Positions 9,385 to 34,600 of a stretch of DNA of 64,000 nucleotides are shown in pieces (position 1 is the stretch's first letter; each line of letters starts with the position of its first letter). Origin of the DNA: Bilabrum cf. latius (taxonomy: Eukaryota); the NCBI GenBank assembly GCA_965178125.1, contig OZ237735.1, positions 992,001-1,056,000 of the forward strand, written 5' to 3'. Below the pieces are notes generated by a model. That model was not told where the DNA came from and ran no database searches. It was given only the letters and a program-made list of their open reading frames with translations. A program made the position numbers and the translations under genes.

Positions 9385-12300
9385 TTATTTTAACAGAGTG
9401 TCATGCAGAGACACGTGAAACCGCTTAGACATCCTTAGAATACTCCTAGCTCGCTCACTATCTCCTCGCTCTTTAGCTTCCAAGAATGCAGACCTGATCC
9501 CGTGTTGCAATCGGTCGAGCACCATTCTAGGGTCCCATGAAATAGGAATACCCTCGCCTATCTCCTTGAACTGCCGAAAAAACTTACCATCGAGTATCCT
9601 CAACCCTGACGCATCGTCCACAACCGAACCTTCATGTCCGGAGGTCAAGTGCCTGGGGCTGTCAATTCCAATTGACCCCGTCTGCAGATACCTGAGAACA
9701 CCTCTTACATCTGACACCGCAGTCCTAACCCCAAGACCGTGCTCAATGGCACCCTCCACCAACCTAAGCACGCGCTTCGCGGCCTACCCAGCAACCCACA
9801 GCTCATTCTAGAGCTCCTGCACGGAATGCTCACCGATACAAGACATCACGTTGATGTCGCTTACCGCTACAATTGTGTCGTCATGCTTTAAGTCGCGCCT
9901 GGAGAGTTCAGATGCAAGCACGCTGCACTCATCCGCTAGGGTTCTCAGTCGGTGGCGGGCGTCAATGCTTCGAAATATGGAGTCGACAAACCACAGACTA
10001 GACTAGAGATGACAAAGACGCTCACAGCACGTAGCAAGCAGCTCAGACACACGTGGGCTGGCAGCATTAGTCTTCGCAAGGCAACGCTGGTGAAAGTGGT
10101 CGAGCAATGGCACTGCTGCTGCGGCCGGTAGCGGACATGCTCGCACCCACAGCCGATTGGCGTTCTTTTCCAGAGCCGTACACTCGGGGGCAGACTCTAA
10201 GTGGGCTGCCATGCCCGCTTCACTCGGCCGCATGCACAGAGCATACAACTGTCCAGCGGTGCTGCCCGCATGGCCGGCCTGGACAGTTTCAGCTGCTTCA
10301 AGCACGGTCCTGGAAACTGTGCTTAAAGCCTTCTCAACTTGATGGGATCCCAATACTTGCTCAATCGAATGCCGTCCTGGTACAGCTCCAATGCTTCGAA
10401 TGCTTGATGAACTTGCTGGGGGGCGTGTCGAGCCAAGGGAGATCCAAGAGCCGTACCGAGCAGCTCTTTCTAAAGCATCAATGCTAGCTCCTACACGAGA
10501 GGCGTAAGGCGCCACAGTCTGGAGCTCCTTTTCCTCCCCACTGAGCACCGGTAAAATAGAGCTCAGCTATGTGCTCGAGGAATGCTTGCTCGCCGGACTA
10601 CGCAACGCAGCTGGGGCAGCTTCTTCAACCTTCCCAGTCTCATCGGACAGCGCTAGCCTAGATACAAACAGCCTCGGGCCTCTCAAGGCACCAACGCACC
10701 GTTCATGAGACTGCTTGCCCTCAGTGTCCTCGCGAGATTTATTGGGTGGTTCCTCAGAACTCGGACTCTATCGGGCCAGTAAGGTCGATGGCGGCGTACT
10801 CCCGATTGCTTCAGGGCTGGAGAACTCAAAGTACTTTCGGGATCGCAATACAAGCCTAGTATAGCGAACAACTAACGCAGCGATGTTTCGCTACCACTAT
10901 TGAGCTTTATTGCCATCAGGTCCTGCTGCAAGTGCAACACTAGTATTAAGCACATGCTGCTTTATGGTTTGCCAGCGGGTGCAAACCTCACTTTGAACCA
11001 CAAGCCATTCACAGCACGCAATTAGAGAACACTCACCGGCGCCAGCAGGTCGCGTGTTGGCAATCTCAGACATGTGCTTGCAATCGCGACCTAACTAACA
11101 AGACTCACAACGTGGAATGGAGATCATGCTCCGCAATACTTCTGCAAGAGATGCCAAAGCAGCAAGATCGCTGGTCAGCCACTCCAGCAGCGTTGAACCA
11201 ATGGGATGATCCTTTGCGCGAGATGATGCCGAGCTATGGATTTCGGGAGCCTGTTTCTCGAGTACCGCCTCAAGCCTAGAACACAGCAGGCTCAGTTGCC
11301 GACCAGCTGCCGTTCTGCTTGCGCGTATGCTGCACGCTTCCAAAACATTTGCGTACAGAGAAGCAGTCTGCTCGATGATAACGTATACAGACGATTCAGC
11401 AGCAAGCATTGACTCAGAACCACTGCTGTGCGATCCACTGAGCATTGTGGCAAGCGTTCGTAGCGATCCAGAGTTGACTAGCACGCTCTCTTTCAGGTCG
11501 TCAACATCAACGCGATAGTCTTGTGCAGCATCTGACAGTGAAGCAGAGGCAAGCCACCAGATTGCCGACTCAAAGGATAATCGATTGCCTGCACCACGCG
11601 ATGCATGAGTTGCGCTGCCATGCACAGGAGACATCCCACCACAGCTAAAGCTACGATGCGCGCGAACTCGTGACAGAATGGAGTCGCTCAAGGCATTCCA
11701 CGTCGATCTCGAAGCCAACACCTACGCGATCCAAATGACGCCTGCGATAGCCTTGTCAGACCTCAGAGGCTCTAGCCATGCAACCAGTGCTCGAGGATCG
11801 AGGCAAGACTGCAGCTCCCCACTAGTAGGTTCAGTGCTCTCTGACAACAGTGAATCACCCAGCAAAGCAACTATGGACTCTGCGACCAGAACGCTCTTGT
11901 CCTCACCCTCGAGCAGAATCATACTTCGAACTTGACGACTACCTACTGAGCATTGAGGTGCCCGCACACTTTCCGCGCAGAAATCAGACAGCAAAGATGA
12001 CTTGTGAGCAGGGCGAGCCACGGAATCGGAATGGCCAGAGAACAGAGTGTTGAGGTACACGGCCGGCTGCGTCGATGATCTCCCTTGCGTCCATGCCCAG
12101 CCAAGCCCATGCTTTCCCATAAATGGACGACGCGGAGCAACACACTTTGACAGCATTGCAAGGGTTGGAACACAACGCTTCACAGCAGTGCGGACATCTG
12201 CCATATTCGCGACTAGAGGGAGTGCTCGCACGCGCCCAAGCAGCAAGCGAAGCTGGGCAACTCGGACGGATGCTACTGCAACGAAGATAGACCGCACCGA

Positions 12301-15300
12301 TAGGTCTCTCCAGCCCTATACTTTGCTTACACTAGCTTTGCTATGGCGAACAAACCTGACCAATGACTCTGCTGCACCCCATGCGTCCCTTGTGTCGTCG
12401 ATTTCCTTCTGGATGTCAGCGCCCGCCCAAGTTCCGCAGTCTGTGCACAGCCTGTTGAGCTGGTCGATATGCTCGGTAAGCTAATCAGTGGCCTGTTCAG
12501 CTCGCCCAGATGAAGCAAGCAGCACACTCGATAGCTCCTACGCAGCATCCCGAACTCGCATTGTACAAGTTCCAACTGCGTCAGAAGAAGACTACCTCAG
12601 CCGAACAGTAGCTGCCCACAATGCCGCGTTGCACGTCAATGCCAGTAAGCTAGCACGCAAGGATCCCAATTGATGGCTGCGTACTTCATCACTACAAAGT
12701 GAATCGGATCTGGTTAGCAAGGCTACAGCTGATTTGCACCGTGATACAGTCAAGTCACGAATGAAGTCCGCTGGGACAATTGACCTCTGCCCAGCTTGCT
12801 GTAGCAGCTCAGCTGACTGTGCATGCATCCCGATTATTTCCCCAGATACAGCTGCTGTAGCATCGCTTAGCACAGTTCCAGCCATGGCAGCATGAACGCA
12901 CCCAGAGATCAGCTGTGAGGCATCAAACACACCTTTTGCAACTTCGATGCCGAAGCGGAGCCGAGGAGTTGATTCAGGTCCGGCAAGCTCGAGGCACTGC
13001 TCGAGCCTGCTGAACCATCGATTCTCAGATTCAAACTTAGTCTGCAACTCTCTAAAATAGTGCCCATGTACGTCTGAAATGATTGGCACGGCCTCAGCTT
13101 GACTCTGCAGCTCGGAGCGAGCACTTGATTTAGCAGCAACAGGGGGACTAGTTGACTTCGATGATGCTCGATGCGATCGAGCCGCAACACTGCTCGCTGC
13201 AAAGACTCGTTTCATCGGAACGATGTCGTCAAATGCATTGCTTTTAATGCTTGTTTGAGCTGGTTTTGATTCCTACAGCGCTGCCAATCGCGGGGTGGTC
13301 CAGCGATCAACAACACTGGGCGACTCAAAAGCCTATTCATCAGTAGCCGCTTGCAAGATGTCGCTCCCAATTCGAAGAAATGCGACGAGTCTATCTATTG
13401 CTATCCAAGAGTGTCGCAGGTCATGCTCGCCGCTGAGCTTCCCAAACAACTTCTTTCCAAGTGGCTGGCCTTGGATCGTAGTGGCAAGCTGTATCACGTC
13501 TATCGTAGTCCCTGGTGACCTAGAGAAGTCTCGGACACATGCGAACAAGTGCAAATACTCCAGCAGAATGCGAAACCGCTTGAGCTCAATATTAACAATC
13601 TATCGATCTGAATCACTCAGGCCCAATGCGAGTCTGGTCGCCACGTCGAGTTGGCTGCTCATCAAACCGACAGACTCCCGTACAAGTGTGGGGACTATGT
13701 TGCTTTGAAACAGCTGGTCAGCTCTAGACCGCAACTGAAACAGGGCAGCAAGCAAGTTCACGGATCGTCGAAGTCCAACAAACATTGCATCTCTAGATTG
13801 TTCTGACCTCAAGAATACGTGCCAAGGCGGCAAAGAGGGGTCAAACATCCAAGACACCGGGGGTGGCTTAAGAGTCGATATGATTGCGCTCCTGCTGCTC
13901 TCTCTCAATGGGGCTGAAGTGGTCTGAGGGGGCTGAACTTGCAGCATTGCTGGCCTTCTTTTCTTGTCTCGAAGACGAGGCACACGCATGCTGGTCCTTC
14001 GCAACAGCAGCACAGAGGCTCCTGAACCTGGCATGGTGCCCAATGCCCTTCGTGGCGACATCTGCAAAGTCGCCGACCGATCGTGCTGGAGTCGCGCACG
14101 TTCCGCTAGCGATTCTTTGTATCTGGCAACGAGTGAGTTTCCAATGCGAGAAATAGTGGACAGGCTGGCTTTCTCACTCACGCTGGCTTGACCGATGCTG
14201 GCGGCCCGCGAAATGACAACACATGCACCTGAAAGCAGGGCATCGGGATCTGTAGGAGCTATACGACTGGATTCTGGCACCCCTGAGGGCTTTGATGTGC
14301 GTGGACCAGAGGCCCTCGGTGTATCCGCTAGAGCGTCCAAAATATCAGCGACTTCATCGCCTGATACAACCGCACTCTCATCATCACCATCGCCATCATC
14401 GGTATCGTCAGAAACCTCATCCAAAGCACTGAAGTCGAAGTGGTGTTGCACCACTCGGCTACTATGCGCAGTTCGGAGGCCCGATCGATGCACCGATTGC
14501 TTCTACACGCAGGACACAAGCTGCCCAGACAGACTCAGCTCGTATGGATCGCAAGCCAACGACAGAGTGGAAGATGCAGCTGCCAGTGAATCGCTGGACA
14601 GCATCCAACCGGGCACCTGCAGCTCACCAATTGACACACCATCTGTGCGAGCCTGCCACGCAGGATTAGTTAGAGTTTGCCTGAGTAGCACTGCAGTCCG
14701 GTGGTTCTACCAAATCACGAGCATGAAAAAAAACTCGGCTGCAAAGCTGACATCGAGACCTAGCGGGGGGCTGGCGGTCTCTGTAAGGCTCGTAGCCGGC
14801 AGTTCGCTATCAGCAATGCCACCCTCAACAGCACCTCGAGACTCATCTAGCGTGCTCTACGATCTTGTGTCATTGCAACGGATGCAGAGAAGTGGAGTCT
14901 GGATCGGGAAAAAGAAAGCAACACCACCAGTGTTAATAGCACGAACGAGCTCTCGAGCATATTTGGCCCGGTCTCCATGGGCGAGTGCCCGTCTGCACTC
15001 TGCAATGATGGAGATAGTGGACACTAAATCCTACAAGGAGGATCCGCCATCCACGACCCCCCCAGCAAGACCAGATTGAACTGCAGCTAATTGAGCCCTA
15101 CAGCTCTCTGCAATCTTAGCACCTCGCTCGCAGGCATCCATATCGACTCCAGCAGCGTTGAGAGCTGCTTGAAGGTCGATTGGAGATTCAGTTTCAGGCA
15201 TGGATTGCACATGCTCCAGCACAAGACTTGCTGCTCGAGCAACCGAACTCTGCCGCTTGTCAGATGATTTGGGGCCTGCCAACTCTGGCACTCGATCATC

Positions 15301-18300
15301 ACAAACAGAATCAGATGCCTAGTTCGTGTTCCGCGAGGCTGCTTTGCTGTGCTCGCCGCGCGGATCGCTGCTGCTCTCGAACACTGAAGCAAGCCCAAGC
15401 ATCTCTTCGTACTGTGACTTCCGCCGCCGACGCGATCGTTTCTTTTGTTTTGATGGCCCAAGCTCTGAGCTTGAACCATCATGCTTGCCGGCGCGAGGGC
15501 TCGATCCGGACGACTGTGTTTGGCTTGGCACTCCAGTTCCGGTCAATAGACCCAAGTGATTTAACCAAGCAAGCCGCACTGAAGAAGGCAGCACAGAGCT
15601 CCGAAGCGCTTCTCGTCTACACGCATTCAAGACTTCCTGCAACTCTTGGGCCTTGTGTAGAATGAGTCTCGCTTCAGTAACCAGCTCCTCAAGTTCTCCG
15701 ATCCATTTGGCCCGTCTAGCTGCACTGGTCCCACTACCATTTGCAGAAGTAAGCAGTGCGTCGGCCATACGCAAACCCCGTGCAAGAATTGAGCTTCGCT
15801 TCATTTTAATGCCTCGCAATAGGGTTCTACGGCTCTCCATCCGCTCGAACACTGCCTGTCTGCGTCGCTCTGCCCGAATCACCTCGTCCCTCGCGGAGAG
15901 CCCGGCAGATCTGGCCTCATCGATCGAGGCTGCCAAGCGGTCATAAATGGCTGGGTCTTCGATATCTTCTGATTCACACTCATGCAACACCTTCAGAATT
16001 TTGGCTTGACGGGATAGATTTGAGAGCACCCGCTTTGCAGCCCACACCACGGGGGTTGGCTGCAAAGCCACTGGCAACAACCTGATCCGCTGCAGTGCCA
16101 GTCTAAGCTCTCGTTCTACCTGAACCCTGCTGACAACGTGAGCATGCCTTGGAGACAATCTACTCGACTAGGAGCGCGAGATTGTCGGTGGTAGTGCCTA
16201 CTAGTATCGACCCGACCAAGCGATTGGGAGCGGGGCATCGCTGCTGCGGCGGTTCGTGCCACGCGTGCCTGCGACTGACGAAGGTGGCTGAGCTAGTACC
16301 TACCCGTCGGGACCGACAATCACCTCTTGAAACAGCTCAGCTGCATGATTCAAAGCAGCACGTAGCTCAATCGAGCATTTGGACCGGGACTATATCAATC
16401 GGCGAAGCTGCATGCCTCTCATCGTTGCCTGAATCCGCTGTGCAGCCGATGCGTGCAGCAAGTCTCGAAATCTAGCCAGTCGCAATACAGCTTCAGTTGA
16501 AACATGAACTGAAGCGTCATCCATGCTGCTAACCTAAACTTCGTTAGCAGAAACAATCGCTGCGGAGTGCAGCCAGGGGAAGAGAGTTGTCTTTGGCTAC
16601 TCAGTGCCGGCCATGACAGTGGGTCGGAGCTGCGACCAGAACACCATTTCCAGCCACAGATGGGTGAGCTAGCGTTCATAATTTACCCGTGCATCTACAG
16701 TGGTACATTTTGAGCTATCAGAGGAGGAGGATCCTTGCCCAGATACGATCGCACGACGAAGAGCTGCCTCAGCACTCGCGTCACCAGATGCAGTCACCAT
16801 CACGCGCCGTTTGGCCTTTTCATAGCGCTACCCAGCGCGTTTCAAGGACGGGTTCTGCCTTTCGAGCTGTTTACGTACTGCCGGTGGGATGAAAACGGCA
16901 AGTTTAGCTGGAGAAGCAAGGTAATCAATTCGCTGCAGCCAGTGGCGCGATATGGAAACCGAGCAGCCCGCCAGTGACGCCACGGCTTCGACAGCTCCCG
17001 CCATTTCTAGCTCCTCGCGGGGAACCACATGAAGCGACTTGTCTCCTTCGGTGCTGCATTGACCTGAAGAGGACAGTACGCAATGCACGTGGACAAGGGC
17101 AGAATCCGACCGGCGCATACCAGCTGGTTTGAGGTAGTCGAGTTTACCTGCTGCTGCTCGAACCAAATCGCATGCAGCCCCAACGATAGCAATGTCAAGA
17201 TCACCTGGCAAGCTACGCGATAAAGCCGAGTCTAGCTTTAAAACTCCACCAAGAATCGCCCTAGACGAATCGAGTGACGTTTGCTCCGCAAGGACACCCA
17301 GAGCCGGTCCAACATGCTCATCATGATGCGAATCTAGCTACGCAACTGCTCTGCCGAAGCCACTGATAAAAACGTCTTGGATCATAGCCAACCTAGATTC
17401 AGCAGAGGGATCGACATGGGCTATCGCACCAGGAAGCCTCCCAAACCTGCCGAGCCGCAACCTGTGCACTGGTCTGAATACGCAGGCCACGTCTACTGCG
17501 GCAGCATGCCGTGCGGAGTCAGACATCCCGCGCTTCAAATCGACGGTCTCTTCTAAGGTGGTAAACGCTGTCACAAACTCTGCATCACCACTGGTACTCA
17601 GCGGCTACCTTCTCACCGAGCTGCAATTAAACCACAGCAGGTCCTGGAGGCATTCGTTGACACGCCGGATTGCACACCCGCTCGCGCTGCTGAACAGAAG
17701 CCGAGCCACCCACGTGCATTCATCCTGCTACAAGCTGCGTCCAGTGACTCGTACAAGCTCCTCGAGTGATCCAGAGCTGAGTCTCTTGAACTACCGACGC
17801 AAAACCCTATGCGCCGAGGCCATTTCACCTCTTTGCGCCAGCAGTGCTGCTGCAACCATAGCAAGTTCTGGTAGGACAGCCTTGGTCCCGCGTATGGCAA
17901 TGCTAGTAGTCGACACACCAAATGACCCCTACCCATATACTGAGGATCGAACTGAAGCTCCGATCCCTACACCAGCACCAGCACCAGCACCAGCACCAGC
18001 ACCAGCACCAGCACCAGCACCAGCACCAGCACCAGCACCAGCACCAGCACCAGCACCAGCACCAGCACCAGCACCAGCACCAGCATCGCCTAGTTGCAGG
18101 CTTCCAGCGGGCGTAATAACATGCTCAAGGAGCCAGAGGAAGTCCTCTCTGTCTGCTTCGCCAGACCTGCCACTTACTCCTGGTGCGGACAAGATGCCCC
18201 GGCCTGAATTTGATGGGTCAGCAAATGCACCAGCAAGTATCATTACTGCCTCCAACTCGTCGTCACTTGCAGTGAGGGCATGCAGTGGGCGAGCGGCGCT

Positions 18301-19527
18301 GTCTCGGTCCAATGCTCGCCGGGCGACAGTGCAGGCAAAGGCTACCGCTCCCGGCAGCTTCAGTCCAGCATCGGGAACGATGATTCTATCCGTCGTCTTA
18401 TCAACCTTCACTTGATGCTTCAAAGATTCTGCCCGGGTACTCTCGCTTGGAAAAACTGAAGCGCAGCAAGTCGCGGCAAGCCTAATGCGAGTGCAAACCA
18501 GCCGTGACTTCGCAGTTGGGGAGTCCAACCTACCACACGAATCCCCCAAACTGCTCATAATGCTTGCATCAGAGGTATTCGACCCATCGATCCATGGTTT
18601 TGCAGGGGCGTCTTGATGAAGTGGAACGTCAGTGGAGCAAACAGCTGCAACAAGAGCGGGTCCAAACGGGGACTCTGTCACCGTGCACGGGGCCATCTCG
18701 CTGATAGAGTCTCTCGATCTCCTTAATCTCGACTACATGTGAGACGTAATGGATTTAAATTTTGCTAGACTGCTTGAGGCTGGCCCCGAGCCGGCGATGG
18801 AGAGCTCAACATCAGCGGCCACAACTCCAACACCGTCTTCTGTGGTTGTTGATGCCGCAAACGCCCGACATAGATCCCAAGCGCCCCGAATTCGCTGTTG
18901 CAGCATTAAACTGCGCGACATAGCCGTTCTCTGCATGACCTTCAGCTGTCTGTGACCCGACGAAGTGCTGGACATGTGCTCAAGCTTGTGACGGAACCGC
19001 AGCTGGCGAACCGAGTCGAACACCAAACCAGTGTCCATGCAGTGAGCCAGGCATCGCATTAATGACTCGGTACACGAGACTTGCTCGCACTAGATTTGCG
19101 CCAACCCGGCCGTCGGGCCGGGCAGTAAGCACGTACCAATCAACGAGAAATCTGGTGGATCGGCCAAGGTCCTCTGAAGCTGGCAAGAAATGCGCACTTT
19201 GCACAATACGAAGTCCACTGCAGCCAATAAGCTTTTGTCAGGTGACATGGATTTCTTTCGGGTGCTATTGACACGTAAGCGCCTCTACCATTCTGCTTTG
19301 CTGTTGGTGGCGTCCTCCTCAACGGCTACCGCGGTCCACGATTCGCCACAATGCAACAGATTCCCGGCAGCAACTGAATCGTGTGGAATGTTGCTGAAGG
19401 AAGATTCACGGAAAAGGGCATCTCCAACGAAAGAGCTCATGACAATGAATGAGAGATACCGTTCGCGTCGAACTAATTTGGCTTCATCTTCAAAGTGTGG
19501 CTTCACCATGGTCGCACGAAGAGGCAT
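9385..19527 (-). CDS. ~3,380-aa intronless protein with a degenerate myosin-motor-like N-terminal region, an IQ motif and a long tail
   Basis: Fifteen minus-strand ORFs (9385...19285) share one frame. The main gaps read by eye contain only TAG, and the frame ends at TAA 9385-9387. IQ motif AAQRIQATMRGMQLRR at about 16400-16446. Myosin-like motif remnants lie upstream in the expected order. The CDS is well supported, the family call is tentative, and the start is uncertain. Confidence 0.7.
17971..18084. repeat. (ACCAGC)19 hexanucleotide microsatellite encoding poly(Ala-Gly) in the minus-strand gene
   Basis: Perfect tandem ACCAGC visible at 17971-18084. Confidence 0.95.
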
Positions 19528-19554
19528 GAAATACAAAAATCTTGTACCAAGCAG

Positions 19555-22500
19555 TCACTTAAGCTTGTTCGTGAGGTGGTGCCTTGCCAGCAAGTTGTAA
19601 ATATCAGCCTTGTCGGACGGCTTGGGAAGACTTCCTGCGATCGGAGTGCCTTGGAAGTCTGCGCCCCCGTTGCCGCTGTGCGCGATGATTGTGCAAGCCC
19701 CGACCTAGGCCTGCTTCTTGATCAGCTTGGTAGCTTCGGCCCCAGACATGCCGGGCAGCCCATTATCCATGAGTACGAACCAGTTCGGCAGCCCAGCGGG
19801 GTGCTTCCCTGTCTTTGCCTCGCGCTTCATGTAGTCGAGAGCCGACTCAGCGGTGCCGTGCGACACGATGTGCACGCGCGACTTGTCCACCATGTCCGGT
19901 TTTGCAAGCATGGCTTCCATCTGTTTGCGGACTGTAGCCTCGTCATCCACGATCAGAATCACGGGCGAAGGATGGTCACCACAAAGCACCGGACGGTGCC
20001 CGCCCGCACCCGCGGAATCCAGGGACTGTTGCAGCACCTGTGGAAGCCTGACCCAGAAAAAGAGCAGAGAACCAACCCCTTCGGCACTGGCATATCCGAT
20101 CAAACCACCGTGCAGAGCCACGGTTGCATCCGATATCACCAGCCCGAGACTCGCCCCTCCTTCGTGCAGCATCAGGTTGCTCGACAGCAGTTGCCGGGAG
20201 AGCATCAGCGCATCGTTGTGACTAAACTTTGGAGATTCTCCTCGAACCCATACCCATCCACTCAAGAAGCGCGGTGCTACCCATCGGACCCTTGATGAAA
20301 GCAGCATGCTTTCTAGGATGCCTCGGCTACCCGACGACCCCTGCAGCCGACCAGCCGTCGAACCTGAAGCACCTTGGTGGTTGCTATTGAAACTTCTGCC
20401 CTCATACACCTTGCGATGACTTCGGCTGCGCTGGGGGGGCAACTTCTGCCTAGAACCGCGCCTACTGGACTGCCTAGTCGCGACCGCTGCTCCATGCCCT
20501 CCTGCGTGCTAATGCTAGTCAGACGCTACCTCAGACTCTTCCTCTCCACCCAGGGGGTCGTCCAGCATGTCGATATACATCGAAGTGATGGCGCTCCGAA
20601 TCCAGGACAAGCACATGGGGGCACAGTTCCTCTCCGTTCGGGGACTGAGCATCCCTTCCATCCTGCTCGCCATGGCATCACCTGCTCCATGGATTCGCCG
20701 CACCACGTCTTTCTGCACCTGCTTGTACGACTGTTGGCCAGAAGGTGCCGAAGCACCGCTCGCTGTAGTTGAAGCGCTATTGCTAGCAGTGATTCTAGCG
20801 CTGCTACCTTCGTGTTCGGGACTGTCGCGACGCAGCTGCTCCGACCAACCACACCCTGCTTGCCCTTCCCGCCCTGCAGGCTTGCCAGAGCCTTTCGATT
20901 GGTTCGAGCCCTAGGACGGCATGCTTGCAGGCGATGAGACAGGCGATTCGGCTGCTCGAGTAGAACGCAAAAGCAATCCAAGTTCATCGACGAGAGCTGG
21001 AGACAGCTGCCCAGATTTCCGCACCTGGTCTAGGTCCCATAGCGGTGGCGGCAGCGGAGAGAGCCCAGCCACAACCTGAGCAGTTCTCATCGAACCTTGC
21101 TCCCTGTCTGCAGATGCAGATGTATGGATAGCTTCCGCATCAATCCTTCCAGTCTGTGGGTCCACACCGAACATGCGCAGCATGCCAGACTCCGCGTCAA
21201 CGGGTTTCTGGATGTCGCGCCCGCGATGCATCGGCGACCCGGTGAGGTCTTGGACCTATTCTTCAAAGCCGTCTCTTGGAATACTCGAGCTGCACGCCCT
21301 TGAAGCAGCTCCTGATCGCCCCGGCATGGTACTCTCTCTACCAGATCGCGCGTCATCGCTGATGAGGCCGGACGTAGTCTGCTGGACACCGGCAGGAACA
21401 GATACCTTCGAATCAATGCGTGCATTTGCATGCGAGTCCTTGGTGGTAGAGCTGTGAGCTGTTGCAGCGTCGTATCCAGAAGAATGTGCCGCAACTGGGC
21501 CTAGGTCGGCCTCGGAGCCGCCCGAGTTCGGGTAGGTGACCATGCGTCGAACTCCAAACAGCAGAATGTTGAAGTACGCCTGCGCGAGTTTCGGCCCGTC
21601 AGCAAACGCCTCTAAGTGCACAGTCCCAGCTGCAGGCGCCGAGCTTCGCCGCCATGGCCCATGCTCTGCGCCGTGGCGGTCTATGCTGAGGCTGCGTAGC
21701 TGTCGCATTTGCACTTTGACTCTGTCCTCGGCAGGCTGTCGTGGACCTGGAGTTGCCCCCGAGTTGTTCGTTCCAAGCAGACCAGGCGCATCTGGCGTGC
21801 CGATTTCCGCGTCGGTAGCACCACTATTTCGTGGGCCGCTCTTGGTGCCAAGAACACGTGGTCCCGGTGTTGGAGTGGCGGTTGGCATTGCAGCCCCACC
21901 AACGGAGTCGACAGATTGTCGAGGCACCCCTTCCCCCCCAGAGGAGCCCCTGGAGAAGCGCCGGGACGACTGCATTGCGCCTGACCCTTCTCGTCCAGCT
22001 GATCCGCCCAGTTGCTCGCCCATATCTCTCAGAACCATGAGCTACATCGCGGCTCTCCCCGCAGCCTTCCACAGCTCGAGATTTACCCGAGCACCCATTC
22101 GGTCAGCGACGCTGAAATCGTTCGGTTCTGAGACCTCCTTGAGACCGAAAGTGGCAGTCTGTCCCACCATGCTACTGCTTGGTGAGCATAGCATATTCGC
22201 AACTGTCCAATGGATTGATCGCGGCATTTGGTTGCGCACCACGCTCTGCGCTCTCTTCACGTTCCTCACGAGGAGCTCGTCAATGTCGCACACCTGAGGC
22301 TCCACAACAAGCTTTCCATCATCAAGTCTCTGCAGCGAGAGAACATCCGACACAATGGCGTCAATTGCCTGCGCGCTCTGCGAAATCTGCTGGGCGCCCT
22401 AGTCTAGCACTTGCATGCTGTCAAGGAGACCACCCGGAGGGAGCTCAGGCGGCTCCGACCCAGCAGTTTCGGAGTGAGTAGCCGAACGCTGCGAATTGGA

Positions 22501-25500
22501 GGAATGCTTCTTTGCTGGGCGACTTGATTGTGATTGCGAGATGGAGGCATCTGGCCGACCACTAGGTTGCTCTGTGACAGGGGCGTCAGATGCTCCCTTG
22601 TCCCCAGGGCCCTTGTTGGCATCGCCGTCGGCTGGAGCAGGATCCGCTGCAACCCCGTTGGAACCAGCAGCTGCGGCCTTCTTTTTCTTGCGCTTCACAA
22701 CGCGCCTTCGTTTCGGCGGTTCAGTAGCTGCAGCAGCAGTGGCTGCATCATCGTGGGCAGCATCTGCTTTCTAGGCAGCAGGCACGTCGCCTCCGCTGGA
22801 TGGCGCTGCTCCGCTGGCCTAAGGTTGGTCTACTTTCTGCTCTTGCTTCTCTTCCTACTCTTGCCTCTGCGCCTTCTTCTTCTTCTTAACCACGCGCCGC
22901 TTCCCTTTTGGCTTGGTGCTAGAAGGTCCATCGTCATGTGGTGCACCAGAGACACCCGACTATTTGGACTCGTCAGGGCCCGCCGTGGCCGAGCTTTTCG
23001 TCAGAGGGACCCGGCTTCCTGCTCCAACCTGCAAACGTTGCTAATTGTTTTGTGAGCCATTCGACAGCTGCAGCTGGCCACTTGGCTGGCGCTTTGCCTC
23101 GCGGCGTCTCTTGACGACGTCGAACAGCCACCCCTTGAACTTGTCAAGCACCTCGTTGCTCTCCTCCGCACCTGCCGTCAGCCCCATCAGGCTGTTTCTC
23201 GCTTCATGCGAGCAAAATTTCAGCCTGGATTGCAAACCGAGGTGAATCTGGGCTGCCTCCCTTGCTGCCTTCCGCAAGTCGATCACCAGCATGATCCATC
23301 TTGCAAACACGAGGATAGGTAGGGTGTCCATGAACACGGACAGCATTGCATAAGAAATGGCCAGCACGATCTGACCTACAAACAGGCTATGGACCTCGTC
23401 GTGGATGCGAGAAGGAGCCGTCGCATTCCATACGGCACGCATGGGTGCCAGGGCAGCAGTCACGCTCGAGTTGGCCCCAAGCAACTAGTCCGGCCGGCCG
23501 CCGCTCAGTCGGTCCACAAATGGAAGCTCTGCGCACGGCACGCCGGGGTGCCACGCGTTGCCCCATCGCAAGGCACACATTACGTCCACGTTCGGCTGCA
23601 GGAGGCTAACATCGGCTAACGACACGTTGACCGCAACGTCGAACCGGTCTGTGGACCACGAGTCTGTGCCACCTGATGCCTTCGTGCCGTTGGAAATTAT
23701 CCAATCGGGTGCGGACACAGTCAGATGAAGCGACCCGAACTCGTGAAGCCACGCACCTGCAGCTCCTGAGGTGGTCATCTGCATGTTCATGGACGTGCAG
23801 TTCTGCGCCGTGGAGCCGTATGGGCCTCGCTGGAAGCCGTCCACTGCGATGAGTATTATCACCAGCCACCGGCTCCACTGCAACAAAGAGGCAGAATTGG
23901 ATTCGAGAGTGTGCGCAGACACCAGCAAGGCATCTGCCTCCGGGCTCTACGCTAGGCTCAGTGCCTGCCCCTTCCTGCGCATCTGCTGGTGGGCTGCGCT
24001 TGGCAGCGAGATGCCACCCGAGCCTGCCCCACTATTTCCATTTGCAGACGACGCCTGATGCGCCATAATGTGCGCCCCCCCAGCTAGGCTTCGTGCAACG
24101 CTTTCGTTGTCAGCAATGTCACCAGATGCCTCGTGCCTGCTCGCTCGAGTGCTGTTCAAAGCCTCGCCGGTGGCACCACCTCTGTCATCGCCACCATCGC
24201 GGTCTAAAATGTAGTCGGAACCAAACAGACGGTCTGTGTAGCGAGAGAGTCTGTTCAGCGAGGCAGAGTCACGCTCGGATGGCCAGCCTCCCTGCCACGT
24301 GCTGGGCGTGTCCGCGTCCGCGCCACCGCAGCAGCCAAGCACACGAGACAGCCAGGAGTCCCCCACGCGGGATTCGGACGAGCCGAACCATGTTGAAGAA
24401 CAGCACGGGGCGGGACCGCTTTGCTCGGCGCGAGAGCAGCGGAAGCAGCAGAAGAGATGCGACAGGAACCCCAAGCAGCCCGTTCCACGTGAGCCGCGCC
24501 CTGCAGAGTCAGTGCCACGAACGGGATCCAAGACCCAGACGATCCAAAACAAGCACAACCCGATCGAAAGGTATCCCAAGATCTCAAGGCACCCCACGAT
24601 CCAGAGCAGCACCTCAAAGTCGAACCAGTTCTGGGCCGAGTCGAACAGTCCGAGATGTGCCTCCACACGGAGCCCGCTGGCGCCATCCCAGTAGTCCCAG
24701 CCGTTCGGAATGCTCCCATTCTGAGCGTGCTGGACAAGACCGGCCAGGAGAGGGCTGATGGCGTCATGTGTCGGCGTACCTGGACGGGCCCAGGCAAGCA
24801 CGCTCGGGTGAACCTGCATGGCAGCTCCTGCAGGAAGGACCAGCGGCTCGAGCATCTGGGACGCCGAACCAGCTCCCATCCCGGCCTCTAGCGCCCCCTG
24901 CGGCATGGATGCGTCCAGCATGCCCCTGCTCGACATGAGCCCTGCGTCCTGCAGCCTCAACCGCAGCTCGGAGAATGCGAATGCGGCACAGGTGGCGCTG
25001 GGAAGCAGGCCCAGCTGGGCCTCGTCTGCCAGCCCCAGCAGCCTCTCTGACTCAGACACAACGAGTAGCTGTAGCAAGGAAGCCAACACCGCCAGGAACT
25101 GCACCGTGAACACCACCGCCGCAGCGAACAGGACGTTCGTGACGCTCGGCTGCTCTCGAATCACCGGTGAGGAGCGGGGCGTTACCGCCCAGAGTAGTGC
25201 TACCAGGGCAATGTAGTACATGGTCCTGGACGCGAAGAAGCCGAGGTACTGGTATCCGATTGCAGGGCTGGTGAAGGATGCTCCATCGGACACACCGAGC
25301 TGCACCTGTGGCAGCACGAGATGCACTTCCTCATCCTCCTACGCCATCTGGTATTCGCCAGCCCCCCGAATTGCCGCGACCAGTACCACGATGGCGGAGA
25401 ATCGGAGAACAAGCGCCTGGTCGCGACGCTGATGAGCATCACGGCTCCGGCGGCACGGCAGCAAGAGCAGCAACAGTCCAACGGCCAGGAGGGAGCTCAG

Positions 25501-26211
25501 CAAAGCAGTTGCGAGCTCCACCGATTGCGTGAGGTGCCAAGCCCCATCCGCTGCTGCTGTATCCCATCCAAACTAGTTCCTCACTACTTCCCGCATCTAG
25601 ATTCCGTGCAGAAACGGGCCGCTACTCGAAGAAGTTTGGTTTCGCATCGACGACAAGTCGAAGCGAAGCACGTCCTCTTCGGACAGAGAATTGACGTCGT
25701 ACAACTCGCTCTTGCTCAGCGATTGCGAAATGGCAGTCGTAACATACCCGCAAACTGTGAACAGGATCACGTCAAGAGCCGTCATTAAGATCAGAAAGGT
25801 GAAGACGAACCTAACATTTGGCCACGGCTCCAGCCAGAGATTGCTGAAGGTGTCTCCTTCGTTCTAGTTCGACTAGCTCGGCTTGTTTTCCTTGTCTGAC
25901 GATCCTGGAGTACGGTTGCGCTCGCTTGTGCTCGTCAAACCAGGGTATACCAGGGACGTCGAGCCTTCGCTCGACGGCTAGCGCATCCTTGTCCCGCTGC
26001 TCACGGCGCGCTTGTGTTCGCTCGATGCGCTCGGCATCGGACTGAGCTTGGTATTATTATCGATGTTTGCGATATGGCCAATCTACTGCGATGAAGAGCG
26101 AGTTGTTAGTCCGGCAAACGACGATTGACTACAAACACTAGTCTTGCATGGCGGTGGTACCATGCAGACATGACTGTGCATGCTTGGGTTCCTTTTGAAA
26201 TATGACTGCAT
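19555..26211 (-). CDS. Membrane-bound hybrid histidine kinase (TM region + HisKA + HATPase-like + receiver), ~2,200 aa
   Basis: ORFs 25597, 25339, 23947, 23485, 23041, 22399, 22042, 21256, 20911, 20515 and 19705 share one frame, joined by TAGs. H-box FCSHEARNSL; G2-like GASLGLVISDATVALHGGLIGYASAEGVGS; receiver ILIVDDE...LMDNGLPGMSG...IIAHSG...PKP. TGA at 19555-19557. Start could be ATG 26211, 26181, 26163, 26037 or 25986. Confidence 0.85.
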
Positions 26212-26452
26212 ACAATTCTCTTACATGAGCCTTTTCACTTCCCTGACCAAGGATTCGAAGGGTCAATTGATTGTCGCGAGCGGCGACCCCATGTGCGGGC
26301 GTGGTCGCAACAGCAGTGGGCATGCGAGCGTGCACTGCATCCCTCACCAAAAATTAGCTTGCTCAGCTTTGTACACAACGATCAGCCTGCAATGGAGAAG
26401 ACATCAATGATCCGTTTGTCTGCACGGTAGAAGCGGCGCGTGTTTGGGAAAT

Positions 26453-27298: not shown

Positions 27299-27557
27299 TG
27301 GGATGATGAGAGATCGATGCACGGTTGCGTGCAACGACCAGCTGACCGCAGCATGAAGCAGATTGAGCAAATCTACCCACTTCAATGGTTCTTTTAATTT
27401 TTGTCCTTCTTTCCAATGCATCTAATCAAGTATAGCAATGTACTTTTTCGCGGTCCACTCCCCCGGCTGATTCGTAGCGGACCGCTCCAAGCCGCTATTC
27501 AGAATAATCGTCAGGCCCCCAGGGGCCACCCAGTAGATCTAGCCGGCACCGAGCAGC

Positions 27558-28979
27558 TTAGCTCTCTCCTTTAGAGATGACGGGGCTCCACTCCGGGCGC
27601 TCTACACGGCCGTACTGCACGTCGGTGATGGCCTGCCAGACCCTCTGGGCGAGCGGGCCCGCGCCCTCCTCTTGCTGCGGGTACAGCGGGCGCACCACCT
27701 TGCCATCGGAATCCATCGACTTGATCGGGCTGACTACCGCAGCCGTCCCGCACCCGAAACACTCCAGAAGCCTGCCAGCATCTGCGGCCCGCTCCAGCTC
27801 CCCCATGGTGATCTTCCTCTCGCTCACCTCGAACTCGCCCCACTCCCGCGCCAGCTCCAGCACAGACACCCTCGTCACGCCAGGCAGGATGGTCCCATCC
27901 AGCGGGGGCGTCACCAGCTCCTGTCCTGAGCCGTCCTCCTTCTCCAACAGCGCGAAAAAATTCATCGTCCCCGCCTCGGTCACCTCCCCCCCGTCCTCCT
28001 CGCCAAATACCCACAGCACCTGAGAGAATCCCTTGCCAGCGGCGAGCACCTGCGGCTGGATGGTCGGGCCGTAGTTAGAGCCCAGCTTGCTGGCGCCGGT
28101 GCCACCGGGCCACGCCCGGACGTATCGGCGCTCGGCCAGCAGGCTGACTGGTTTGAAACCCTCGGGATAGTAGGGGCCCACCGGCGCTGCAATGCAGTAC
28201 AATTTCACGCTGCCGCTCGGCCCCACGCCGAGGAAGGGGTGCGTGGAAATGGCTGTGGGTCTGAGGTACAGGGAATATCCATCGCCCTCAGGAATCCAGT
28301 CCTGATCGACACGCACGAATTCCTCGATGCACCTCAGGAACTCTTCCTTGTCAAAGGCAGGAAACTGAAGCCGGGTGCAGGAATCCCAGAATCGGTCCAT
28401 GTTCTTCATGGGGCGGAACATGCGAACATTGCCGCTATCATCGCGATACGCCTTCATCCCTTCAAAGCACTCCAATGCGTAGTGCAAGACACTTGCGGCA
28501 GGATCGATCTAGAACGGTGCATACGGGACGATCTTCGGCGACTCCCAGCCTCCGGTCTTCGTCCAGTTCACTTCCATCATGTGGTCACTGAATGTGGTGC
28601 CAAATGTAAGCTCCTCTTTAGGTTTCTTGGACTTGGGCGCCTTCGTCTTCTCGATAACCATCCGTGATGACTGCGGCAGCAAAGATGGGGAGCACTGAGG
28701 AGCACGTGCCACGTAGCGCTTGCATGTGTCCGTGTCAGACCCTATTCATGATCCAGATGCAAGCGAAGGGATTCAATAATCATAGTTGTACCGGTGTTTG
28801 GAGAACAGCGCCAACACAACCAGACTGCGGCGATCAATCATGGCAGTTGCACAAGGGAGGCTCACATCAATGCCACCGCCAACGGAGGCAGCTTCCGAAG
28901 ACATGCGCTGCACTGAAGGCCTTCCGATTGAGAGAACTCTCGCTGAAATTCGACTGCTTGACATAATGAGCCTGTTCAT
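27558..28979 (-). CDS. BCAT: Branched-chain amino acid aminotransferase, probably mitochondrial
   Basis: Motifs FGTTFSDHM, LHYALECFEGMKAY, YLRPT, KLGSNYG, EAGTMNFF, ILPGVTR and GCGTAAVVSP. Arg/Ser-rich N-terminal presequence. Intron 28671-28865. In-frame TAG at 28509-28511; ends TAA 27558. Confidence 0.95.
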
Positions 28980-29141
28980 GATGAGTTGAGTGACAATGCG
29001 TTGTTAATTGGCAACCGCACCATCGTGCCAATTTTAATGTTGCGAGCTAATAAATAACAACATTCAAATCGGATAATGAACGTTCATTGGTCGGAAGCGC
29101 AAAAAAGGCGCATTTCAACCTTGTCCTCCTGCGGCAGGTAC

Positions 29142-30428
29142 ATGCCAGCTTCCGCTCCATCGGACGCGCAGACGAAGACTATAGCAATGGAGCAGCCAGA
29201 ACCGCAGACCGGAACTGGGAAGATTGCCGGGGTGGTTGCGTTCTACTTTGTGATTAGCATTTCTCTCGTGTTTGTGAACAAGACCATTCTTAGCTCAAAG
29301 GAGCTGTCCATTCCGGCGCCTCTGGCAGTCACATGGTTTCAGTGTCTAGTTTCAGCCATCATTTGCTACGCTGTAGGGGAGCTTGGACGTAACGCGAGCA
29401 AGGGCAGCTTCCTGTACTAGTTTCCGGCTCTTCGCATCGATCAGAAAACCCTGTTCAGCGTGGCAAAGCTGTCATTTTTCTTCGTGGGAATGATTACGTT
29501 TAATAATTTGTGTCTCAAGTACGTAGAAGTATCGTTTTATCAAGTGGCAAGATCGCTAACGATTGGATTCAATGTGCTCTTCACTTGGTTGCTCCTCGGG
29601 GAGCAAACCACTGCCCAGGTCGTTGGCTGCCTTGCCATTGTTGTCATGGGCTTTTATCTCGGTGAGACGTATTCTGTGTGGCGGATGGCTACCGCTGTGC
29701 CATTGTGCCATTCCAGTGCAAACAGCGCTCGGCGTTCGTCTCCGCTCCTACCCTGCCCCTCTCCCTCCGCAGGAACCGAGTCTGAAGTGAACTTTAGCCT
29801 ATTAGGAGTGATCTTTGGAGTTTCATCTAGTGCGTTTGTGTCCTTGAATTCAATCTTCATCAAGGAGGCCCTGGGATTCGTGAAGGCTGCGAACGTGGTC
29901 GAGAAGGGCAGGGACAAGATGTGGCTCCTCAGCGGCGTCAACAACGTGATCGCCACGGTGCTGTTCCTCCCGCTGATCCTGGTGTCTGGGGAAGTGGACA
30001 TTGTGCTAGAGCACTCGGACCAGCTGGCCAGCCCCGCCTTCTGGGGCAGCATGCTGCTGAGCGGCGTGCTCGGGTTCCTCATCGGTATCGCCACGGTCAT
30101 GCAGATCCAGGCCACCTCCCCGCTGACGCACAACGTCAGCGGGACTGCCAAGGCCGCCGTGCAGACCGTCCTGGGACTGCTATACTTCGGGAACGAGACC
30201 AACGTGACGAACATGACGGGCGTGGCGCTGGTGCTCGGCGGCTCCCTCCTGTACGCCTACGTGAGGCAGCAGGAGAAGGCCGCAGCAGACGCGGCGAAGA
30301 AGGTGGCCCAGGCGGCCCAAGTGGAACTGAAGGGCGCAAGCGCGGGCCCAAGCGAATCCGAGCTGGTCACTCGCGGTGCCGCCGCCGCCTCCTCCTCCGG
30401 CGGAGCTGACCGCAAAGTCGAGCTGTGA
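29142..30428 (+). CDS. SLC35C1: GDP-fucose transporter-like nucleotide-sugar transporter (SLC35C1 family)
   Basis: Motifs FVISISLVFVNK, TWFQC, GMITFNNLCLKYVEVSFYQVARSLT and TSPLTHNVSGTAKA. In-frame TAG at 29418. A 111-nt in-frame intron at 29662-29772. Start may be 29142 or 29187. Confidence 0.9.
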
Positions 30429-30568
30429 TCTGGTCTGGATGTCATTAGGGATGCTCGCACTGGCACAGAGCAAGTCCTCTCCCTATGGTACAAATACGCT
30501 TGGATTTTCCCATTCAATTAGACGGCGATTGCACAAAGAAAATTAATATTGTTCCAGCGACGGTGGAA

Positions 30569-31459
30569 TCACAGGATCATGCACCACTTCGATTTCTTCT
30601 TTGGCTTCTCGCGCGCCGACAGCCCGCAGCGAATTGCTTGGTCGAAAATCGCCTTCAATCCCGTTGTGTGAAGCGCACTGCACTCCATGTACTGTACTGC
30701 ACCAATCTCGCCGGCCAATTTGGTACCATCCTCAGCGGACAGCGGAGCGCGGCCTTCCTCCTTCAATTCTGCAAGCGCCTTGGGGTCTTCGCGCAGGTCT
30801 GTCTTGGTACCGACAAGAATAATGGGAACCCCTTTCGCGTGATGATCGAGCTCTGGCACCCACTTCCCGCGCACGTTCTCGTAGGATGCATGCGAAACCA
30901 CGCTGAAGCAGACTAAGAACACGTTCGTTCCTGGGTAGCTCAAGGGCCTAAGCTTGTCATAGTCCTCCTAGCCTGCAAAATGAATCCAAACAAAAGGGAA
31001 TGGGGGGCATAGCATGAATGGTAGGCCCCACAGCATCACGGCGTGACTTGCAGCTGCGGCAGTGTCTGCAGCCAAACTCACCGGCAGTGTCCCACAAACC
31101 CAGGTTTACAACAACACCGTCCACCAAAACGGATGCTGAGAAGTTGTCAAATATAGTTGGGATACTGCGGGGTTGGAACTTGGGAGTTGCAGTGCGTGGG
31201 CGAGCGCTAAGGCGCGCCAAGAGCAGCACCGCGAAGTTTACAGCAGGTGTGCTACGCATAGTAACTCACTACTCCGTCGGAAATTGGCTGCGATGAGTAC
31301 GAATACGCTCTATCAAGGCGGGAAGTGAGATGGGCTGCCTAAATTTCGAGTGACCGTCGAAACAGCATCTCACTTGTGGGTGTATGAAATCAGCATGCAG
31401 GTCTTGCCAACAGCGCCGTCCCCGACGACCACTGCCTTGACACTTTCATCACTCGCCAT
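30569..31459 (-). CDS. RAC: Rac/Rho-family small GTPase
   Basis: Exons 31459-31374, 31287-31270, 31164-31082 and 30972-30569. Motifs [55 protein letters not shown], polybasic tail and CAAX CMIL; TGA stop. Confidence 0.95.
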
Positions 31460-31678
31460 TAGATTAGGTGCACGCAGAACCCCGTAAAGTATGCCTAGGC
31501 TAGTCGCAGTGCGGTAGCCAAGTATCTGGGTCCCTACCGATCATGATGAGGTGACCGCACATTTTATCTTCATCTTAATTTATAGCATGAACGAGGTCGC
31601 ACGTAGAGACGCGCCTCAACCAGGTTGAGCAGTTGGAAACTACCCTCTTTGCCGTCAATTTCATGGATTTCGTGAAAA

Positions 31679-34600
31679 TTACACTATGGAGGCGGCCTGG
31701 TCGCGCTTCCCCCCCGCGGTGGAGGCTTCCCCTCTGCTGCCTCCACTCAGTGCTCCGCTGTCGACGCGGCGAATTTTAGTGCCTTCCTCTACCTGCTTGT
31801 TGTCCTGCCCAGGAAATGGAACCTTTGATATCGAGGTGGAGCTACCCTTCCGCATGCTGCGAGAGTCAGAGCCGTGCAGCGACCCAAGCCGGCGCGTTGG
31901 TGTGCCGCCGTGGCAGTGCGGCAGGCAGGTGCACCACCCTTTTTTTCGCAGCCATCTCAGGACCGCTTCCGTGTAGAACATGGCCACGAAGCCGGCAGGT
32001 ATGAGCGCAATGGCGCTGATGACTGTTCGGACCCACAGCTCCGCCTGCGTGCTCTCCCTGGCTATCTCCTCCTCCTGCGCCCTGGCCATCATCTCGAATG
32101 CAGCCACGCCCACAAGGCAACCGGCCATGATGTTGTAGCTGAGTCGTACCCGCCACTCACTGAGGGCCTGCATGGTCACCTGTGAGCCCATCAGAGCCAG
32201 AGCGATGAGGAAGAGAGCTCCGGCGCGAGCCAGGGGAGGCTCTGCCAGGAACACGCCAACGAATGCATACAGGTTCTTGCGCACGAAGAACCACGCTTCG
32301 TACCACAGCCTGTGCTCATGGTGCACCCACGCGCCGAATTCAACTCCTAGATCCTGCAGGGTGTCCATGCGGATGAGAGACCACCGTCTGTGGCGCTTGC
32401 TCTTCTTGGACCTGAGGCCGCCCTTGCCCTTGCCCCTGCCCTTCCCCCTGCGCCCGCGCCGGCTCGACAAGATCGCCTGGTCCGGGACAGTGCTCCACCG
32501 CTCTGTTGTTCTGGTGGGTGCCAAGATTCCGCTTTGCATTTCGCTGTGGCTACTCAGCGATCCAACCCGGCTGCCCTTGTTTGCAGTGGAACCTGCCGCG
32601 CTCCACGCCTCGATCACTACTGGCCTCCCGTCGCTGCCTTCGAAGCTTGGAGCAGACGGCTCTCGGGCCGATGGAAGCATATCGTCGGCATTGTCAGGGT
32701 CGGCTCTACCCTTCTCTCGGGAGCTAGTAGCTGCAGAATGCACGTGCGAGCTCCCATGTTGAACCGAGTGGGCCTCGCTCATGAGAATCGCCGCGTCTGC
32801 GCTGTCTACAGACCCTGTCACGGAAGACCTGGATGCGACGGATTTCATTGCGAACGATTCCGAGTTCATCGAATTCCCTTCGCTGAAACCCTCGTCGGCT
32901 GGATCTCCGCCACGGGCAATGATGTCGCGACGGGCCTGCGCCACCTGCTCCGGATGGAGCACAAACCAACCGTCGGTAGCATGCCCGGCCACGTACCTGC
33001 GATACGAGTCTGATGCTCGCAGTTTCGCACAGCAGCATGGCCCAAAGAGAGGCAAGGAGGCACAGCGAAGCCTTGTCCACTGGAACACGATCGCCACCCA
33101 GAAGCTGATACCGGTAAACTTGCCGTGGCGCAAAGCCTTCCCACCCCCAAGCTCGTTGAACATGACCCAAATCAGTGCAGTTGGAAGTCCAACCACGGCA
33201 ACAGCCACCACTGCAGCCATGACTGTGGCTGCCACAGTATGAGACGGGGTACCGCACTCTATTGTCAGCTGCGATCGCATGAGCGATGTCCCGGCAACCT
33301 CGCGGCACGACATGAATGCCAGCGCCGTGGTGATAACCGATGTATAGGCAATCAAGACGAGCCGCCACAAGGCACTGACGTATTTCATCAGCCAGGAGCT
33401 ACCCAGTTGCGCCGATGGCATGGGCAGCACAGCAATTCCCTCTGCTTCCAAATCCTCCGACTCTTCGCGATCACTGCCAGAGTCGTCAGGCCCATGAGTG
33501 GTTGACTTCTTCAAACCACCCCCCCAGTTGACGGCGGGGGTGTTGCGACTATATCACTGCAATTTGGCGCGGGGTTTGCCCCATACTTTGCCCCGGGCTA
33601 CTCTTGAGTGCCCTGGCTGGAACCCGAGGTCTGAATGCGCACCGTGGGAGCAGTTGTCGCCGCCGCCTGTTGCTACTGCTTCCTTGCTGAGTTTTCGACT
33701 TCGATCGTGTCTGGCAGGCAGGAGTCACCGCAGCACACGAAACAACAAAAACTACATTGTCGCACTCCATGATGTGCGTAGAGAGCACGGATGTGGGAGT
33801 GGCTGTGCTTGACAGACTTTGTCCGCACATCAAAGTTGAGCGCGAATAGGGCATCATCGCTTATCTGGGACGCACGCTCCATCGGCACTTCTCCTGTTCG
33901 CGACTGCAGCACCTCGTCTATGCGACCAGCATCAGCTGAACACGGGAAAAAGAAGGCACCCCAGCCACCCATGCTCTCCTTCACAAGGTGGGCTTTCCGA
34001 AACACACCCTCCAGCAGAAGGGCAAGCAGCACTTGTAGGATCAGCACGGTCGTCCACCCCAAGCTGAAGAACGCTGACGAGAAAGGAGCCAGCGGAACCA
34101 GGCAGGGGAACTCCTCGTCGCCGAGGAGAGACGAAAAGTCAAGAGCTGAGATATCCAACCGAATTGAAGCCATCCTGGAAGCACCCATGATCACGACTAG
34201 CATCTGGACAAAATCAGCGTACACCTTGAAAAGAGCAAAGCCCCCGGCGTCGTTGTCGTTGCTTGCCAACAGCAAGAATGCTACGACAGCGAAGCCAAGA
34301 AGTAAGGCAAACACAATGAACGGCGCGTTCGTACGGGTGCATCGCACACATGACGATCCGAACGGGGTGAAACCTTCGGCACACTCGCCGCACAGGGGGC
34401 TGTCATCAACTCGTCGAAACCCACAACGCTAAGGCGAGTCTAGGGAGCAAAACCCTGTGGGACTATTAATGCAGCACACGTCCGGATCACACCGATAGAG
34501 ATCGGCCAAGTCATCCGGATTCTACCAGAAATCACGCGCAGCCGCAATGTGGCTCCCTCCTGTGCAAGCTGCCCCTCTTGGGCACTCACGGCACACGCCC

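Follow-up and report, generated by a model that had tools for sequence, protein, structure and literature searches.

The window, by which we mean the whole 64-kb stretch of DNA analysed here, carries on its minus strand a Rho/Rac-type GTPase gene that, in the spliced model, runs from 31459 to 30569 and comprises four exons and three introns. The spliced coding sequence of 591 nt specifies 196 amino acids followed by TGA and contains a single internal TAG, at codon 64. The parts of the gene are listed below in transcript order, with the contigs of public sequencing runs that bear on them (X5, X6 and X7, described further on).

31374..31459, minus strand: Rac exon 1, with the start ATG at 31459 and the P-loop GDGAVGKT; transcript contigs cover it with the pieces 31374-31474 and 31374-31513
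31288..31373, minus strand: Rac intron 1, 86 nt, GTGAG..CAG; missing from the X5, X6 and X7 contigs
31270..31287, minus strand: Rac exon 2, an 18-nt micro-exon encoding (N)QFPTE(Y); an 18-nt piece of its own in the X5, X6 and X7 contigs
31165..31269, minus strand: Rac intron 2, 105 nt, GTGAG..CAG; removed in the transcript contigs
31082..31164, minus strand: Rac exon 3, from switch I IPTIFDNF to WDTAG; matched by the transcript contigs
30973..31081, minus strand: Rac intron 3, 109 nt, GTGAG..TGCAG, acceptor 2 nt upstream of the TAG; skipped in X5, X6 and X7
30968..30970, minus strand: in-frame TAG, codon 64 of Rac, corresponding to the catalytic Gln61 of Rac1 in the switch II motif DTAGQE
30572..30972, minus strand: coding part of Rac exon 4, with TKTD and CSAL; identified by Pfam Ras and by phmmer against the PDB
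30569..30571, minus strand: Rac stop TGA, immediately 3' of the CAAX box CMIL

With TAG read as glutamine, exon 4 (P0001) matches the Pfam Ras family at 1.5e-24 and aligns end to end with residues 61-192 of human Rac1 in a phmmer search of the PDB (E 7.7e-45), its first residue, the one written TAG, falling on Gln61; its scores to Rac1 and Cdc42 are almost equal. The alignment is gapless over the Rac1 segment after TKLD, which we take to be the Rho insert. Three full-length Rac-type database proteins (P0139, P0170 and P0131) share 63.7-64.2% of residues with the spliced product in global alignments, and in all three the TAG is paired with the Q of WDTAGQEDYDRLR. Both comparisons bear out the first-pass annotation, which had placed TAG 30968-30970 at the Gln61 position of Rac from the DNA letters. 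It had also called the rest of the gene intact, and the motifs agree: the P-loop, switch I, the DxxG of switch II, TKTD, CSAL and the Rho-insert region are all found, and the C-terminus bears a polybasic stretch and the CAAX box CMIL before the TGA. The P-loop, switch II, the Rho-insert region, the polybasic stretch and the CAAX box are shared with human Rac1 and Cdc42, while the window protein differs from these in having three additional N-terminal residues and, in EDYDK, D-K where D-R is expected. Its catalytic residue is glutamine only if the code reassignment argued for below is correct; Q stands at this site in P0124, a related Rac of 83% identity whose gene was called with the standard code.

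Contigs of the public runs X1, X5, X6 and X7 were aligned to positions 30300-31800 of the window, the low-share runs X8-X18 being left out. In X1 the region is an unspliced stretch within one identical contig, and this run is probably the source DNA. X5, X6 and X7, which belong to studies P2 and P3, both separate from that of X1, contribute one contig each, made up of the pieces 30300 (or 30532)-30971, 31081-31164, 31270-31287 and 31374-31474 (or 31513), agreeing with the window at every letter and free of gaps. At the joint 30971/31081, 109 bases are skipped, with ends CT..AC (cut +1) that correspond to a minus-strand GT..AG at 31081/30973. The splice donor 31081 and acceptor 30973 given in the first-pass annotation are thus exact, intron 3 extending from the G at 31081 to the G at 30973 with the same joint in the transcript contigs. 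The run labels read only 'RNA?' ('probably DNA' for X5) and none of the runs is on record as RNA; we take X5, X6 and X7 as RNA because the introns are exactly removed. These contigs are spliced Rac mRNA from which the three predicted introns are out and in which UAG is unchanged: since they have the predicted joints and no other letters, the message is spliced as predicted and still carries the UAG. A cDNA with a different acceptor or with CAG had been named as evidence against a sense TAG, and neither is seen, the three contigs using the predicted acceptor and reading TAG at 30968-30970. Around intron 3, 28 GT/GC..AG pairings give a standard-code open frame; DTAGQEDYD is kept in none of them, all deleting or replacing the motif, and an acceptor at the AG within the TAG would put the sequence out of frame.

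The transcript contigs also bear on the two ends of the Rac message. The X5 contig stops at 31474 in Illumina adapter, while those of X6 and X7 reach 31513, so that the 5' UTR is at least 54 nt long. At the other end, the X5 and X6 contigs run well below 30300 into a convergent TPT transporter gene (29058-30428), whose stop lies just 140 nt from that of Rac; the 3' ends of the two transcripts therefore overlap or nearly touch, an arrangement that indicates a very compact genome.

In-frame TAGs are by no means confined to Rac. Stop-free frames were surveyed on both strands of window positions 1-45000 under three readings of the stop codons:

Standard code: longest frame 637 codons; 21 frames of at least 250 codons
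TAG as sense: longest frames 3389, 2221, 1357, 1069, 781 and 709 codons; 33 frames of at least 250 codons
TAA as sense: longest frame still 637 codons; 25 frames of at least 250 codons

The gain in frame length is specific to TAG, the six longest frames containing 38, 21, 13, 7, 5 and 4 TAGs, respectively, and many unrelated genes carry the codon in frame. Recognisable among the long TAG-bearing frames are a protein kinase with a PH domain, an OCRL-like inositol 5-phosphatase with ASH and RhoGAP domains, a branched-chain aminotransferase (BCAT), a TPT-family transporter, a PBP-like domain protein, a receiver-domain protein, a Cdc27-type DNA polymerase subunit and a CDP-alcohol phosphatidyltransferase. 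In 14 gene-like frames totalling 12,600 codons, counted from stop to stop and including some 5' non-coding sequence, there are 99 TAG, 292 CAG and 143 CAA codons, such that TAG makes up 18.5% of the glutamine-type codons. Two of these loci are referred to repeatedly below:

27558..28745, minus strand: BCAT gene with one in-frame TAG and a TAA end; in the nearest relative, the standard-code protein P0002, the residue facing this TAG is Q (CAG)
9385..26220, minus strand: two giant open frames of 3389 and 2221 codons with 38 and 21 TAGs; the metagenome contig L001 can be aligned to the 5' half of the 2221-codon one

No Pfam domain was found in the 3389-codon frame (9385-19554, minus strand), which has a perfect (Gly-Ala)n tract, about 20 repeats long, and the window maximum of TAGs. 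The TGA at 19555-19557 (minus strand) ends the 2221-codon receiver-domain frame, and the 3389-codon frame goes on in the same reading frame, its nearest ATGs lying 10 and 16 codons downstream of this TGA; either two giant genes less than 50 nt apart or readthrough to a 5611-residue product would account for this layout. In the TPT frame (29058-30428, plus strand), Pfam TPT matches two stretches separated by a segment of low similarity around SVWRMATAVPLCHSSANSARRSS, and alignment to L001 fails in this part too; this middle segment may be an in-frame unspliced intron.

The other two stop codons behave as terminators. A CAAX box must be C-terminal, and the TGA directly after it consequently terminates Rac. 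The BCAT gene ends in TAA in the window and in L001 alike, at about the ends of the aligned homologues, and the longest frame stays at 637 codons when TAA is read as sense, in keeping with a TAA that is not a sense codon. Of 12 frame ends examined, 9 are TGA and 3 TAA, a small sample and one partly shaped by the way frames are defined; in these 12 frames, UAA and UGA still terminate.

Which amino acid TAG specifies can be approached through L001, a metagenome contig of 7075 bp that is syntenic with window positions 23179-29696 and comes from a related organism, amino-acid identities to the window being 83% for BCAT, 79% for TPT and 66% for the giant gene. L001 has in-frame TAGs of its own, 12 of them in one 982-codon frame. 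Across 1490 aligned codon pairs, the partners of TAG are distributed as follows:

Window TAG, partner codon in L001: CAG 3, CAA 1, TAG 2, AGC 1, GGT 1, CCC 1, TCT 1
L001 TAG, partner codon in the window: CAG 6, TAG 2, CCG 1, CGT 1, GCA 1, TAT 1

Glutamine codons account for 10 of the 18 non-TAG partners, as against a background of 3.4% (naive binomial P 7.5e-11), while GAG, AAG, TTG, TCG and TGG, the other single-step neighbours of TAG, are found in none of the 18. Most of the eight non-glutamine partners (AGC, GGT, CCC, TCT, CCG, CGT, GCA and TAT) lie in poorly conserved stretches, CCC and CGT being in well-conserved ones; where at least 7 of 10 flanking residues are identical, a manual tally gives glutamine codons in 9 of 11 partners, with CCC and CGT as the exceptions. 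Seen from the other side, the commonest non-identical partner of CAG is TAG (9), compared with 5 for CAA and 3 for GAG, and the exchange of TAG and CAG resembles that within the true synonymous pairs GAG/GAA, AAG/AAA and TAT/TAC in the same alignment. TAG is one transition away from CAG, and this mutational proximity accounts for part of the enrichment, but it leaves the lack of the other neighbours unexplained.

Proteins of relatives point the same way, those called by others under the standard code (P0124, P0002 and P0243) giving independent support. Besides the Rac relative P0124, glutamine stands at the TAG site of BCAT in P0002, at that of TPT in a relative, and at one TAG site of the OCRL-like protein in P0243, which has K at another; among distant homologues, the columns holding the BCAT site and two OCRL-like TAG sites are variable and uninformative. 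Three further proteins, P0003, P0122 and P0242, were compared with window positions 27558-28745, 30569-30972 and 6980-9325, respectively. They are 95-99% identical to the window genes, and each either begins directly behind an in-frame TAG or breaks off directly ahead of one; they appear to be truncated, as standard-code calling of TAG-bearing genes would make them.

Since TAG lies within many gene frames, TAA brings no comparable gain, the aligned partners of TAG are largely glutamine codons and genes end in TGA or TAA, we conclude, with a probability of about 0.9, that UAG encodes glutamine in the nuclear genes of this organism while UAA and UGA stay stops. On the same joint reading, and with the same confidence, Rac is a normal, expressed and correctly spliced gene in which the catalytic glutamine of switch II is written with the reassigned codon. 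The first-pass proposal that TAG encodes glutamine is supported in this refined form, in which TAG alone is reassigned and TAA and TGA continue to end genes. Its further suggestion that the Rac codon is the strongest single-site evidence holds in part: the site is a good one, being catalytic and backed by RNA, while the assignment to glutamine comes from the combined evidence.

In the likeliest mechanism, a dedicated tRNA-Gln with the anticodon CUA would decode UAG, and eRF1 would have lost its recognition of this codon. A tRNA with this anticodon would read UAG and not UAA, which would allow UAA to remain a stop. This reasoning follows what excerpts of PMC5304391 and PMC11687900 propose for other UAG-only reassignments. 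ARAGORN found no tRNA genes in the window or in L001, an Rfam search gave no match at gathering thresholds, and the eRF1 gene lies outside the 64-kb window.

Several other accounts of the TAG codons were weighed against this one. UAG might be dual and context-dependent, as in some ciliates and Blastocrithidia, standing for glutamine within genes and for stop at some gene ends; a sample of 64 kb leaves some room for this, and in frames bounded by TAA or TGA a terminating TAG would simply be read through. Yet all 12 examined frames end with the other two codons, and in the cases that allow the C-terminus to be assessed (the CAAX box of Rac, BCAT, the receiver domain) the protein does not call for a stop at an earlier TAG, so that we regard a dual UAG as unlikely. 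It is more doubtful still that UAG is a sense codon for some other amino acid, such as Glu, Lys, Leu, Tyr or Ser, which would make Rac an atypical, GTPase-deficient protein. Some Rho proteins do lack Gln61, one OCRL-like TAG site faces a K and one L001 TAG a TAT, and UAG is read as leucine or serine in other eukaryotes according to excerpts of PMC11687900. These points are set against the preponderance of CAG and CAA and the complete lack of GAG, AAG, TTG, TCG and TGG among the 18 non-TAG partners, against the Q of relatives at the Rac, BCAT and TPT sites, and against a TAG-CAG exchange as frequent as that within true synonymous pairs.

The two readings in which TAG is never a sense codon fare worse. 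Under the standard code the Rac product ends after DTAG, which could mean a pseudogene, a nonsense allele or a gene rescued by low-level readthrough; we consider it highly improbable that TAG is still a stop, as Rac is transcribed, fully spliced in three runs and free of further defects, some 99 in-frame TAGs lie nearby in conserved and very long frames (38 of them in the 3389-codon frame), and the diverged relative L001 keeps open frames with TAGs at different positions. Removal or alteration of the TAG before translation, through another acceptor or donor or through U-to-C RNA editing, has a certain appeal in that the acceptor AG lies 2 nt upstream and TAG itself ends in AG, giving the look of a tandem acceptor. 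The X5, X6 and X7 contigs, however, have the 31081/30973 intron and match the window letter for letter; splicing at the AG of the TAG would break the frame, and none of the 28 frame-preserving alternatives retains the switch II motif. Contigs can drop rare variants, and a minor isoform is possible on this evidence. An assembly error is opposed by the identical X1 DNA contig, and we find either version of this explanation scarcely credible.

The same code is known from few organisms. In the fornicate Iotanema spirale, UAG alone is reassigned to glutamine and UAA is still a terminator (PMC5304391, excerpts), and the likeness to the window extends to both the codon and the amino acid. This species is an anaerobic metamonad known from its transcriptome, whereas the window is GC-rich (53-62%) and compact, with stramenopile-like best named matches; moreover, the primary stop of I. 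spirale is UAA according to the same excerpts, while TGA is the commoner one in the window (9 of 12 frames). The ciliates Hartmannula sinica, Trochilia petrani and Protocruzia tuzeti likewise read UAG as glutamine and keep UAA as stop, as described in parts of PMC11687900, with codon and amino acid identical to those found here. These parts give UAA as the preferred stop in all three, unlike the window, which further differs in lying within an X1 contig of at least 212 kb with GT-AG introns of about 100 nt and in its Rac gene. No ciliate appears among the named best matches of the BCAT, Rac and OCRL-like proteins.

Reassignment of both UAA and UAG is the commoner variant and includes Amoeboaphelidium protococcarum (excerpts of PMC5304391, PMC6299283 and PMC6394959); the UAR-to-glutamine form (NCBI table 6 type) is recorded for many ciliates, some ulvophytes, hexamitids, Streblomastix and A. 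protococcarum (PMC5304391 and PMC6299283, in part). The window resembles these codes in its UAG and departs from them in its UAA, which does not behave as sense. An aphelid with an Amoeboaphelidium-like UAR-to-glutamine code was considered as the source and rejected, TAA being a stop and BCAT not grouping with Holomycota in a single-gene tree, a weak indication. UAG has also been reassigned apart from UAA to leucine, in the rhizarian exLh and some phyllopharyngean ciliates, and to serine, in Scotinosphaera (sources including PMC11687900, in part). The window shares with these lineages the separate fate of UAG but differs in the amino acid, TTG, CTN and TCG occurring in 0 of the 18 non-TAG partners; the other serine codons AGC and TCT make up two of the eight non-glutamine partners, in poorly or moderately conserved stretches.

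A literature search, covering sources other than subscription journals and supplements, brought up neither a stramenopile with an altered nuclear code nor any additional case of UAG read as glutamine. The window probably adds a new lineage to a known variant (NCBI table 15 type), since its genome is GC-rich and its best named matches are stramenopile, as opposed to the fornicate and ciliates in which the variant is known. If a paper on this genome exists, it may already state the code of the lineage.

The affinity of the organism is approached from its composition and its best matches. Outside the repeat described below, 2-kb windows have a GC content of 53-62%; the genes lie close together, and introns measure about 100 nt. 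Among the 120 matches listed for the OCRL-like protein, the placeable named organisms are all stramenopiles, namely diatoms, bolidophytes and oomycetes with identities of 33-39%, and one further match is labelled only 'archaeon'. The best named matches of BCAT and Rac are mostly oomycetes, while the closest relatives, at 83-98% identity, are metagenome or run-assembly proteins. In a BCAT tree (a single gene with 37 rows, built by a quick method), the window protein and P0002 are unplaced and do not fall with Holomycota. A stramenopile affinity is likely, the named best matches of these three proteins lending it weak support.

It is conceivable, at somewhat less than even odds, that the window represents an independent and previously unreported reassignment of UAG alone to glutamine in a GC-rich, compact, stramenopile-affiliated eukaryote, present in at least two species. 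The window organism and that of L001 have about 76% nucleotide identity in BCAT, and a reassignment shared by two species so far apart would therefore count as a settled character of their clade and not as a recent accident. The reassigned codon would then be in use even at a catalytic residue. Known cases of UAG as glutamine with UAA as stop amount to one fornicate and three ciliates in the excerpts of PMC5304391 and PMC11687900. Split meanings of UAG and UAA are rare and bear on how the recognition of the two codons by release factor and tRNA separates; a further case would broaden the conditions under which this change occurs to a GC-rich genome, neither ciliate nor metamonad, with TGA as the usual stop, and the organism would offer a comparison for the evolution of eRF1. 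In practical terms, public gene calls of this lineage appear to be truncated at TAG, as in P0003, P0122 and P0242, and annotation or phylogenomics of the genome under the standard code would go wrong for a large proportion of the genes.

Beyond the surveyed genes, window positions 44893-64000 are occupied by a tandem array that extends for about 19 kb to the end of the window, with periods that are multiples of 45 nt (90, 180, 225 and 405). A Pfam search of the three open frames in the 45-64 kb repeat gave no match. The array has a GC content of 70.6% with a strong skew of C over G and of A over T, and it is open for more than 6000 codons in two plus-strand frames and one minus-strand frame, one of the plus-strand frames encoding a 15-residue repeat rich in A, P, D and T, as read from the TRF consensus unit. 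Possible identities are a satellite and a giant, repetitive gene for a surface protein.
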